Positions 1,102-52,840 of a DNA stretch of 64,000 nt are shown here, in pieces (positions within the stretch are counted from its first letter, which is position 1; each line of letters starts with the position of its first letter). The notes under the pieces are model-generated. The model was not told where the DNA came from. It ran no database searches and saw only the letters and a program-made list of their open reading frames with translations. Both the position numbers and the translations under genes were made by a program. This DNA comes from a virus (Duplodnaviria; Heunggongvirae; Uroviricota; Caudoviricetes), in the IMG/VR virus record IMGVR_UViG_2851938318_000001, one strand, 5' to 3'.

Positions 1102-1155
1102 TGAACCGCCCCGGAAATCCTGGAGACTAAACTCCCTGAGAAAGAGGTAAACAGG

Positions 1156-1482
1156 ATGACTAAAAATACTCGTTTTTCCCCCGAAGTCCGTCAGCGGGCG
1201 ATTCGTATGGTTCTGGAAAGTCAGGATGAATATGACTCACAGTGGGCGGCAATTTGTTCCATTGCCCCAAAGATTGGCTGTACGCCGGAGACTCTGCGTG
1301 TCTGGGTTCGCCAGCATGAGCGGGATACCGGGGGCGGTGATGGTGGGCTCACCAGCGCTGAACGTCAGCGTCTGAAAGAGCTGGAACGTGAAAATCGTGA
1401 ACTGCGCCGCAGTAACGATATCCTTCGCCAGGCTTCCGCTTATTTTGCGAAGGCGGAGTTCGACCGCCTCTGGAAAAAATGA
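1156..1482 (+). CDS. IS629 transposase OrfA (HTH)
   Basis: 108-aa [18 protein letters not shown]..., identical in all six copies. Confidence 0.85.
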
Positions 1483-2369
1483 TGCCACTGCTGGATAAGC
1501 TGCGTGAGCAGTACGGGGTCGGACCGGTATGCAGCGAACTGCATATTGCCCCGTCAACGTATTACCATTGTCAGCAACAGCGACATCATCCGGATAAACG
1601 CAGTGCCCGTGCGCAGCACGACGACTGGCTGAAGAGAGAGATACAGCGCGTATACGATGAAAATCATCAGGTGTACGGTGTGCGTAAAGTCTGGCGTCAG
1701 TTGTTACGGGAAGGAATCAGGGTGGCCAGATGTACAGTGGCACGTCTCATGGCGGTTATGGGACTTGCCGGTGTTCTCCGGGGTAAAAAGGTCCGTACGA
1801 CCATCAGCCGGAAAGCCGTTGCCGCAGGCGACCGCGTAAACCGTCAGTTCGTGGCAGAACGACCTGACCAGCTGTGGGTGGCTGATTTTACTTACGTCAG
1901 CACATGGCAGGGCTTCGTCTATGTGGCGTTTATCATTGATGTGTTTGCCGGATACATCGTGGGGTGGCGGGTCTCATCGTCTATGGAAACGACATTCGTG
2001 CTGGATGCGCTGGAGCAGGCGTTGTGGGCCCGTCGTCCGTCTGGCACCATCCATCACAGCGATAAAGGCTCTCAGTATGTGTCACTGGCCTATACGGAGC
2101 GACTAAAAGAAGCCGGATTACTGGCATCAACAGGGAGTACAGGCGACTCGTATGACAACGCGATGGCTGAGAGCATCAATGGTCTTTACAAAGCGGAGGT
2201 AATACACCGTAAGAGCTGGAAAAACCGTGCAGAAGTGGAACTGGCCACACTAACGTGGGTGGACTGGTATAACAATCGACGATTGCTGGGAAGGCTGGGC
2301 CATACTCCTCCGGCAGAAGCAGAAAAAGCTTATTATGCTTCCATCGGAAACGATGATCTGGCAGCCTGA
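1479..2369 (+). CDS. IS629 transposase OrfB (DDE domain; normally expressed as OrfAB by -1 frameshift)
   Basis: 296-aa ORF overlapping orfA end at A-run (ggaaaaaatgatg). Confidence 0.85.
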
Positions 2370-2411
2370 GTTCACAGATAAAACACTCTCCAGGAAACCC
2401 GGGGCGGTTCA

Positions 2412-2661
2412 GTGAGCCTTACTTATATCTGTAATTCGCTATCCACTATAGTGAGTATCGTTATCTGTTGATAACCACTGTAGGCAGTAGAATGCAAATA
2501 CTGAATGAAATGTTAGTGATCACTAACACTGATGAAACAAGGGCTGCGAGGTTAGTGGTCACTGGGTATCTTGGAAAATTTACTGTCTATAGTGGTTGTT
2601 GTCGCCCTCATCTTTGAGCGTATCCACTGTGGCGAGTGGATATCCACTGAAAACAGCAAAG
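2412..2661. repeat. Iteron copies in mixed orientation between the two tandem IS copies
   Basis: atccactatagtgagta, aaccactgtaggcagta, tactgtctatagtggtt, atccactgtggcgagtggat. Confidence 0.5.
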
Positions 2662-2715
2662 TGAACCGCCCCGGAAATCCTGGAGACTAAACTCCCTGAG
2701 AAAGAGGTAAACAGG

Positions 2716-50600: not shown

Positions 50601-51530
50601 AACGCGCATAGGTTCGAGGTCTGGTTCTGTAATAGTCCAGACGCCGTTCAAAACAGGCGTTTCAGCCGAAGACAGGGCTTTTGAAAACGTAACTTTTGTT
50701 ATATTTTCGCCAGTTTCAAGAACATCGCGTTCAACGATTTTGCCTTCCTGATTCAGTATTCGAATAAAGCAGCCGCCTTTGGCTAACGACACAGGCGCAT
50801 CGAGTGTGACGCTGTTTTTGGTAAACGCCACAATTCGACCTGAGTTACGTTTGCCTGCGCGATATTTGTTCTGAATCAGAACGGTTTCACCAGGCATCAG
50901 AAATGACGCGTCTAAGCCGGCAGTAAATGTAATTACATCCGACTCCATTCTGGAGGTATATAAAAGCCACAAACCAACTCGGTGAGCCTGCCCTCGGCTT
51001 GTACAGCCAAATGCTACGACTTCTGTTTTACGCTCACCATAACGGCGCATTGCGTCCTGATCTTCGACGTACTCGATGTTTTGCTTATAACCGTCCTCCT
51101 TGTTGTTGTAGGTTACGAGCGCAACGGATGGGCGATCTTTACGCGCAGAACCTTTATAGGTAAACAATCCATCTTTGACGTTAGAGTTGGTAAACATCAT
51201 TACCGGATCTGATGGGCTATCCTGCATGATGTTAACCATCCCACCAGCCCAAAACACCATGCCGCGGAATGCTCCGGCAATATCCTGAATTAGCCGGTAT
51301 GCGTCCTGTCGACTGGTGATCTGCGTATTGATTGCAAAGCGTTTCTCTTTGCCACCAAAGCCATCATCGACCTCTTCGTCACAATATCGACCAATCTGGT
51401 ACAACTGGCCAAGGTCAATCATAGATTCCGACACATACTGACCAAGGCCATATCGAGCATTGGTCAGCAAATCAAAGAGAATCCACGCGGGGTTCGAAGA
51501 AGACAACAGCTTAAAAGTGCCATCCCATAC
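47661..51530 (-). pseudogene. Host-specificity/tail-tip protein J-like, C-terminal part (interrupted by IS629 copy 6)
   Basis: NPAWILFDLLTNARYG...AFGCTSRGQAHRVGLWL matches lambda J central region as recalled; reading frame runs to the IS boundary. Confidence 0.75.
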
Positions 51531-51572
51531 TGAACCGCCCCGGGTTTCCTGGAGAGTGTTTTATCTGTGAAC

Positions 51573-52463
51573 TCAGGCTGCCAGATCATCGTTTCCGATG
51601 GAAGCATAATAAGCTTTTTCTGCTTCTGCCGGAGGAGTATGGCCCAGCCTTCCCAGCAATCGTCGATTGTTATACCAGTCCACCCACGTTAGTGTGGCCA
51701 GTTCCACTTCTGCACGGTTTTTCCAGCTCTTACGGTGTATTACCTCCGCTTTGTAAAGACCATTGATGCTCTCAGCCATCGCGTTGTCATACGAGTCGCC
51801 TGTACTCCCTGTTGATGCCAGTAATCCGGCTTCTTTTAGTCGCTCCGTATAGGCCAGTGACACATACTGAGAGCCTTTATCGCTGTGATGGATGGTGCCA
51901 GACGGACGACGGGCCCACAACGCCTGCTCCAGCGCATCCAGCACGAATGTCGTTTCCATAGACGATGAGACCCGCCACCCCACGATGTATCCGGCAAACA
52001 CATCAATGATAAACGCCACATAGACGAAGCCCTGCCATGTGCTGACGTAAGTAAAATCAGCCACCCACAGCTGGTCAGGTCGTTCTGCCACGAACTGACG
52101 GTTTACGCGGTCGCCTGCGGCAACGGCTTTCCGGCTGATGGTCGTACGGACCTTTTTACCCCGGAGAACACCGGCAAGTCCCATAACCGCCATGAGACGT
52201 GCCACTGTACATCTGGCCACCCTGATTCCTTCCCGTAACAACTGACGCCAGACTTTACGCACACCGTACACCTGATGATTTTCATCGTATACGCGCTGTA
52301 TCTCTCTCTTCAGCCAGTCGTCGTGCTGCGCACGGGCACTGCGTTTATCCGGATGATGTCGCTGTTGCTGACAATGGTAATACGTTGACGGGGCAATATG
52401 CAGTTCGCTGCATACCGGTCCGACCCCGTACTGCTCACGCAGCTTATCCAGCAGTGGCATCAT
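51573..52463 (-). CDS. IS629 transposase OrfB
   Basis: Identical 296-aa translation. Confidence 0.85.
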
Positions 52464-52786
52464 TTTTTCCAGAGGCGGTCGAACTCCGCCTTCGCAAAAT
52501 AAGCGGAAGCCTGGCGAAGGATATCGTTACTGCGGCGCAGTTCACGATTTTCACGTTCCAGCTCTTTCAGACGCTGACGTTCAGCGCTGGTGAGCCCACC
52601 ATCACCGCCCCCGGTATCCCGCTCATGCTGGCGAACCCAGACACGCAGAGTCTCCGGCGTACAGCCAATCTTTGGGGCAATGGAACAAATTGCCGCCCAC
52701 TGTGAGTCATATTCATCCTGACTTTCCAGAACCATACGAATCGCCCGCTGACGGACTTCGGGGGAAAAACGAGTATTTTTAGTCAT
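52460..52786 (-). CDS. IS629 transposase OrfA
   Basis: Identical 108-aa translation. Confidence 0.85.
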
Positions 52787-52840
52787 CCTGTTTACCTCTT
52801 TCTCAGGGAGTTTAGTCTCCAGGATTTCCGGGGCGGTTCA

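Follow-up and report, generated by a model that had tools for sequence, protein, structure and literature searches.

Six IS629/IS1203 insertions, an inversion and a split tail-tip gene in an SSU5-type phage-plasmid

Background

Why should the sequence of a tailed phage contain one and the same insertion sequence (IS) six times, and can such a sequence still give rise to a phage? The question is raised by the IMG/VR virus record IMGVR_UViG_2851938318_000001 (Caudoviricetes), from which a stretch of 64,000 nucleotides, here called the window, was analysed. A first-pass annotation made from the sequence had recorded six identical copies of IS629 and had taken them as the mark of a recent IS expansion and of a likely defective element. 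The explanation that best covers the data, to which we give a probability of roughly 85%, is that IS629 burst onto a phage-plasmid of the SSU5 type in a Shiga-toxigenic Escherichia coli (STEC) lineage of O111 type, that one segment was then inverted and the tail function lost, and that the element was kept as a plasmid.

Position 1 of the window is the start codon of repA, and the window is therefore the start of a plasmid record. It would comprise the first 64 kb of an SSU5-type phage-plasmid of ~110-117 kb, a temperate phage kept in the form of an IncFIB iteron plasmid.

Results

A repeat search found a 1310-bp sequence six times in the window. Direct comparison of all copies, each 1310 bp long, gave no nucleotide difference, so that the identity claimed in the first-pass annotation holds without any divergence among copies. 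Together the six copies, numbered here by position, make up 12% of the window. Perfect 3-bp direct repeats flank four of them: copy 1 (1102-2411, + strand; GTG at 1099-1101 and 2412-2414), copy 2 (2662-3971, + strand; AAG at 2659-2661 and 3972-3974), copy 5 (39580-40889, + strand; ATT) and copy 6 (51531-52840, - strand; TAC, read on the + strand). Copy 3 (7621-8930, + strand) and copy 4 (17623-18932, - strand) have no duplication of their own. Instead, their flanks match crosswise when read in the orientation of the IS: CTAC (4 bp) closes the left flank of copy 3 and opens the right flank of copy 4, and ACT (3 bp) likewise closes the left flank of copy 4 and opens the right flank of copy 3. 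The earlier description of four clean 3-bp duplications and two recombinant copies is accurate, with the refinement that one of the recombinant insertions made a duplication of 4 bp. Checked against empty sites, the target-site duplications of the six insertions are thus 3 bp in five cases and 4 bp in one.

Six identical 1.3-kb copies with such duplications cannot be the product of chance. At the IS density of the host chromosome, 56 kb would be expected to hold 0.4-0.6 copies, and the probability of six or more is about 6e-6 to 6e-5; the density in the window is more than 10-fold the chromosomal one.

The terminal inverted repeats of the IS have the TG...CA form and begin TGAACCGCCCCGG; 13 bp are perfect, and overall the two ends match at 23 of 27 positions. 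OrfA (108 amino acids) carries the Pfam domain HTH_Tnp_1, and OrfB (296 amino acids), which overlaps it, carries rve. Both match NCBIfam models of IS3 transposases, OrfB with 316 bits. A run of A residues forms a slippery site directly before the orfA stop codon, and the ALIL frameshift pseudoknot of Rfam is present at full length in all six copies (121.5 bits; gathering score, 50). At 100% identity, the sequence agrees with copies to which RefSeq gives the name 'IS3-like element IS1203 family' in chromosomes of E. coli O157:H7 and O111. On these matches the element is assigned to the IS3 family as the IS1203 isoform of IS629, its exact name being that of the RefSeq annotation. IS1203 of O111:H- has been treated as an isoform of IS629, whose subtype I resembles it; IS629 is reported to make duplications of 3-4 bp, and 62% of its copies in O157:H7 were located in prophages (PMC3271280).

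Outside the ISs, the window is 95-99% identical to many E. coli plasmids of ~110 kb, and the segment 3972-7620 is 97% identical to phage Cyrano (OV696614) and 78% identical to Salmonella phage SSU5. The backbone is therefore that of an SSU5-type phage-plasmid. In the E. coli, plasmid and phage collections searched, no record contained 3972-7620 at 100% identity or covered positions 1-8000. A search of IMG/VR yielded neither the junction of copy 1 nor that of copy 6.

The IS-free plasmid pGD31-F25 (NZ_CP031294.1; 110,686 bp) served as reference for the empty sites. The ancestral sequence was reconstructed by deleting each of the six copies with one copy of its duplication and by turning the segment 8931-17622 back. 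The result, 56,121 bp long, is collinear with positions 1-56,593 of pGD31-F25 at 95-99% identity. Three of the rejoined junctions match the uninterrupted reference at 80 of 80 positions and the site of copy 1 at 79 of 80; the rejoined dnaE site differs by two mismatches and one gap, none of them at the junction. Copy 5 adjoins a variable block, and its rejoined 500 bp are found intact (500/500) in at least 12 IS-free plasmids. All six insertions and the inversion are verified by these intact empty sites in relatives. Every backbone gene shared with pGD31-F25 is full length after reconstruction, except the tail gene L.

An error of assembly or polishing would be another source of identical copies or of their arrangement, in that 1.3-kb repeats can be collapsed or homogenised by assemblers and the structure of the window differs from that of its only relative in the databases, plasmid pRM9131-1. 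Such an artefact is hardly conceivable when every copy has flanks of its own, when joining these in pairs recreates known sequence without interruption and with a proper duplication of 3-4 bp, and when five of the junction pairs are present independently in pRM9131-1.

That relative, the closest record, is a 117-kb plasmid (pRM9131-1, NZ_CP028430.1) of E. coli strain RM9131 from cattle faeces in Salinas, California; a literature search for the strain found no mention of it. Where they overlap, the two backbones differ only by one indel and by changes linked to ISs and are otherwise 100% identical. Five insertion sites are common to both and are occupied by the same IS, namely the site of copy 2, the sites in recA and dnaE, the one upstream of parA (copy 5) and the one in the tail-tip gene J. 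The window alone has copy 1, an intact 5'-3' exonuclease gene, a 3.6-kb segment reaching from an SPFH gene to the truncated recA, the inverted 8.7 kb and a 1-bp deletion in L. Only in pRM9131-1 are the exonuclease gene and a large gene for an AAA ATPase hit by ISs, and nrdA by an IS91-family element; this plasmid has also undergone a deletion and a large inversion. The loss of the 3.6-kb segment from pRM9131-1 is what recombination between the direct copies at the copy 2 and recA sites is expected to produce. From the shared and the differing sites it follows that the two plasmids are sisters, that their ancestor already had five insertions and that both are still changing through IS events.

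Two further observations concern the sister plasmid itself, outside the window. At 16037-20180 and 24063-24539 of pRM9131-1, an IS91-family element splits nrdA and the gene dfrA51 is also carried, a trimethoprim-resistance dihydrofolate reductase gene recently described from phage-plasmids.

The chromosome of RM9131 (NZ_CP028429.1) has a copy of IS629/IS1203 at 2132409-2133386, with its positions 316-646 deleted, which interrupts a P2-like prophage's gene for the replication endonuclease. This prophage site is occupied in 37 complete genomes, mostly STEC O111:H8/H-, some of which have a full-length IS there. By this diagnostic site, the RM9131 chromosome groups with the STEC O111 genomes. At least 35-40 IS matches were counted in each of these chromosomes, the count being capped at 40, and at least 40 in that of the sister's host. 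The shared IS-disrupted prophage site and these counts bear out the first-pass proposal of an IS-expanding E. coli lineage.

Among 5,426 complete E. coli genomes, the junction of the IS with J occurs in one, in pRM9131-1, and the backbone of the window exceeds 98.9% identity in no other genome. It follows that the insertions are private to this small lineage. This restriction, together with the differences between the sisters, is better evidence of recency than the identity of the copies, and it is mainly on these grounds that the earlier view of a recent expansion is upheld.

The exchange of flanks between copies 3 and 4 has its counterpart in gene order. The 8.7-kb segment between them (8931-17622) contains dnaE, cspG, regulators, the 5'-3' exonuclease gene and the N-terminal part of recA, and is inverted when compared with pRM9131-1 and the IS-free relatives. 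Its two borders are formed by these copies, which are in inverted orientation. To the left of copy 3 lies the C-terminal part of the recA-like gene and to its right dnaE from nucleotide 9; copy 4 has the N-terminal part of the recA-like gene on one side and, on the other, the first dnaE codons with their native ribosome-binding site. It follows that two oppositely oriented insertions exchanged flanks when the segment between them was inverted. Homologous recombination between the copies in recA and at the dnaE start would account for this.

The same final structure, with two inverted copies and duplications split across the inversion, would also result in one step if the IS in recA had attacked the dnaE start by intramolecular inverse transposition. 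This route is very unlikely, as IS3-family elements transpose through an excised circular intermediate (copy-out-paste-in), which gives simple insertions. Moreover, pRM9131-1 has ISs at both the recA and dnaE sites and keeps the segment in ancestral orientation, which is the state expected before an inversion.

The RecA-family gene (PF00154, by Pfam) is split after codon 121 of 357. Its C-terminal 236 codons, cut from the start, are found at 6910-7620 (- strand) and its N-terminal 121 codons at 17256-17622 (+ strand), where they run into the IS to form a chimeric open reading frame of 200 amino acids. The recA-like recombinase of the phage is destroyed by this split.

The second breakpoint affects dnaE (8854-12441, + strand), which encodes the alpha subunit of DNA polymerase III. 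The site duplication covers nucleotides 9-11 of the gene. Its first 8 nucleotides are missing here, as is its native ribosome-binding site, which together with the ATG now lies next to copy 4 at a distance of 10 kb. Within the IS, at its right end, there is an ATG that shares the frame of dnaE and overlaps the end of orfB (8854; the annotation pipeline PGAP uses 8872), and the native Met5 codon is at 8935. The gene has lost its own translation start and would now depend on signals derived from the IS. Through the internal ATG, the reading frame stays open with a chimeric N-terminus (8854-8937); the insertion need not be a null mutation and the gene may be expressed. PGAP annotates an intact dnaE of 1189 amino acids in the sister plasmid.

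Copy 6 lies inside the tail-tip gene J, recognised by the domains FNIII-A_GpJ and Phage-tail_3, and splits it after codon 286 of 1575. The N-terminal fragment (52841-53701, - strand) encodes 286 native amino acids and one residue encoded by the IS before it reaches a stop codon. The C-terminal 1289 codons (47661-51530, - strand) lack both a start codon and a promoter. In addition, the gene for the minor tail protein L (55090-55787, - strand) has a 1-bp deletion at ~55444-55446, TTT to TT, when compared with pRM9131-1. The frame is shifted after about amino acid 114, giving a protein of ~153 instead of 232 amino acids; apart from this deletion, the two sequences agree throughout 46 kb.

In phage lambda, J is needed to build the tail tip, and lambda-type tails depend on it. 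With J split and L frameshifted, infective particles should therefore be abolished. The split J, together with the frameshifted L in the copy of the element seen here, indicates that infective virions are very probably no longer made, in line with the first-pass reading of a likely defective element. That reading also opposed a plasmid-like nature to an infective one. Here the contrast is a false one, as members of this family are plasmids in the lysogenic state anyway; the defect itself is what J and L support.

In the same region, diverged direct repeats of ~120-140 bp with 76-81% identity were observed in the tail-fibre gene (43992-45480) and in the C-terminal coiled-coil part of J (48679-48846).

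Several points weigh against the explanation preferred here. The loss of infectivity is read from sequence, and about 50 kb of the replicon, with the head, terminase and lysis genes, is outside the window. The single-base indel in L is seen only in the window copy and could be real or a sequencing error. The assignment of the window to its host rests on the sister plasmid. The identity of the copies, rejected here as a clock, is too weak for dating, and the absence of substitutions limits their summed age only to thousands of copy-years. [quoted passage not shown]

The last point is one way in which the element might still be a working phage that yields some infective particles, the other being that a resident prophage supplies the tail tip. 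The IS differences between the sister plasmids could reflect excision as well as insertion, pRM9131-1 has, according to its annotation, intact head, portal and terminase genes, and most of the SSU5-like phage-plasmids that have been tested were inducible (PMC9600943). Such a phage would nevertheless need at least one reversion in the same molecule that has J split after codon 286 and L frameshifted, and two reversions if the L deletion is real. Complementation by a heterologous tail tip is not likely, and six additional ISs add 7.9 kb, which would strain a capsid limited by head-full or cos packaging. For these reasons a working phage is quite unlikely, and the preferred explanation remains loss of the tail with persistence as a plasmid.

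Persistence is consistent with the state of the maintenance genes. The module comprises an iteron-type Rep3 initiator and a ParA/MipZ-like ATPase gene, and the replicon is typed as IncFIB. The initiator gene repA (1-1056, + strand; domains Rep3_N/C) is intact and encodes the same protein as in the IS-free relative. With the repA, partition and toxin-antitoxin genes intact, the element therefore persists as a plasmid. Its virion gene set is not complete, given the split J and the frameshifted L among the tail genes in the window. By descent the element is a member of the SSU5-like family, but a degraded one.

All targets named in the first-pass annotation, among them the recA-like gene, the dnaE start, the region upstream of parA, and J, are verified against an IS-free relative and by Pfam; gene identities were settled by annotation, Pfam and nucleotide comparison. 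What it called the origin region is, more exactly, the iteron array downstream of repA (1088-4133; consensus TATCCACTRTAGnGAG), now broken up into three pieces by copies 1 and 2. Six downstream iterons are found in the reconstruction, at ancestral positions 1089, 1128, 1309 and 1329 (+ strand) and 1368 and 1490 (- strand). Copy 1 is inserted 45 bp after the repA stop codon at the 3' edge of the first downstream iteron, which it cuts, and is without counterpart in pRM9131-1. Copy 2, at a site shared with pRM9131-1, lies 292 bp after the stop codon between two convergent iterons. In P1 and RepFIB replicons, arrays in this downstream position control copy number. Iterons of 17 bp occur on both sides of repA when positions 116000-117123 of pRM9131-1 are included, at least five upstream and six downstream, the last two downstream being inverted.

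The pair formed by copies 1 and 2 with 247 bp between them was considered as a composite transposon. It was rejected because separate duplications (GTG and AAG) flank the two copies, with no single one around the whole, and because the 247-bp spacer is native backbone in its native place; copy 1 is also missing from pRM9131-1.

Copy 5 is inserted in a divergent intergenic region of 322 bp, 121 bp upstream of the ATG of the intact parA/MipZ-like partition ATPase gene (38790-39458, - strand), which is followed by a small gene for 117 amino acids. On the other side, a toxin-antitoxin pair of the DUF1778/GNAT type begins ~200 bp away. No centromere-like repeats split by copy 5 were found in the region upstream of parA, where only a short palindrome and two 8-mers are present, and a promoter scan of the same region gave no more hits than shuffled sequence. 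The DUF1778/GNAT pair (TacAT-like; 41090-41888, + strand) beside parA is one of two toxin-antitoxin modules observed, the other including a YafO-family toxin at 24.7-25.8 kb. In pGD31-F25, the place of the pair is taken by two unrelated small genes.

The combination of disrupted phage genes and intact maintenance genes might also mean that the insertions were selected. Knockouts of tail and recombinase, together with altered iterons, dnaE and par, would then have domesticated a costly prophage, turning it into a plasmid that is stable and non-lytic, possibly with a changed copy number. This would suit the integrity of all maintenance genes (repA, parA, the small partner gene and the toxin-antitoxin pairs), the position of two insertions out of six in 250 bp of the iteron array downstream of repA and the dnaE frame kept open through the IS. 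Yet two of six random insertions would fall within 250 bp of each other by chance with a probability that we estimate at ~0.1, and a knockout of J does not stop lysis. No parallel insertions are seen in other lineages, and the further hits in the sister plasmid look random (exonuclease, AAA ATPase and nrdA). Selection is for these reasons unlikely, and passive accumulation is preferred.

A related suggestion, tentative and doubtful, is that the element is a phage-plasmid partway to a pure plasmid and that some of the insertions have consequences for function that were selected, in which the right end of the IS supplies the start and perhaps the transcription of dnaE, and the insertions among the iterons relax the control of copy number.

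Other features of the window were noted. A full-length cspA thermoregulator (Rfam, 185.7 bits) is found at 12720-13138 (- strand) before the cold-shock gene cspG, with a helix-turn-helix (HTH) regulator nearby. This cspG/HTH block (~2 kb, 12.4-14.2 kb) gives no alignment to pGD31-F25 and is unusual cargo for a phage-plasmid. Four transfer RNA (tRNA) genes, for Asn, Tyr, Thr and Ser according to the annotation of the sister plasmid, are located at ~27413-27970 (- strand); Rfam finds three of them, and they are conserved in the IS-free relative.

Discussion

The preferred explanation would proceed in three steps. An SSU5-type phage-plasmid would first have entered an IS629-rich E. coli lineage of STEC O111 type. 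The resident IS629 would then have inserted at least six times by copy-out-paste-in transposition, leaving duplications of 3-4 bp. Thereafter, homologous recombination between the inverted copies would have inverted the 8.7 kb between recA and the dnaE start. In general terms, this would be the passive accumulation of an active resident IS on a dispensable replicon, followed by recombination between its copies. We infer this order of events, and relaxed selection as the cause of the high IS density, from the final structure.

The scheme agrees with earlier work. The route from phage-plasmid to plasmid has been described for P1-like elements (PMC10879196), elements of the SSU5 group are reported to be able to differ solely by gain or loss of ISs (bioRxiv 10.1101/2025.09.12.675607), and one E. 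coli SSU5-like element reportedly was not inducible (PMC9600943). The IS, the plasmid family, the IS richness of the host and the process of decay are all already known, and no new mechanism or element is described here. The value of the case is that it is a clean and fully reconstructable example in which the order of the insertions, of the inversion and of the sister plasmid's deletion can be worked out and each event compared with empty sites. It shows how fast an IS-rich pathogen lineage can disable an incoming phage-plasmid and yet keep the plasmid. Surveys of phage-plasmids should not count such elements as transmissible phages. In addition, the IS629 junctions could be used as fine-scale markers for this cattle-associated lineage.

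In comparison with IS629/IS1203 of enterohaemorrhagic E. coli (EHEC) O157:H7 and O111, the element described here has the same length, terminal repeats, open reading frames, -1 frameshift site, pseudoknot and duplication size. There are no differences in the IS itself, and only its density in the window is unusual.

The backbone likewise has the gene order and content of the IS-free SSU5-like phage-plasmids pGD31-F25, Cyrano and SSU5. The order common to all is repA with iterons, recA, exonuclease, dnaE, CobT/AAA, integrase and tRNAs, followed by ligase, primase, DnaB, parA and the tail module. These relatives, however, are without IS629, and their J, recA and dnaE starts are intact. Some small variable regions also differ, among them the cspG/HTH block and the toxin-antitoxin pair beside parA.

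The decayed P1-like phage-plasmids described by Pfeifer and Rocha (2024, PMC10879196) are the closest parallel to the process as a whole. In both cases, phage functions are lost so that only a plasmid is left, and transposable elements are involved. The P1-like cases represent completed gene loss, whereas the SSU5-like element in this window represents an early stage of IS-driven decay in which nearly all backbone genes are kept.

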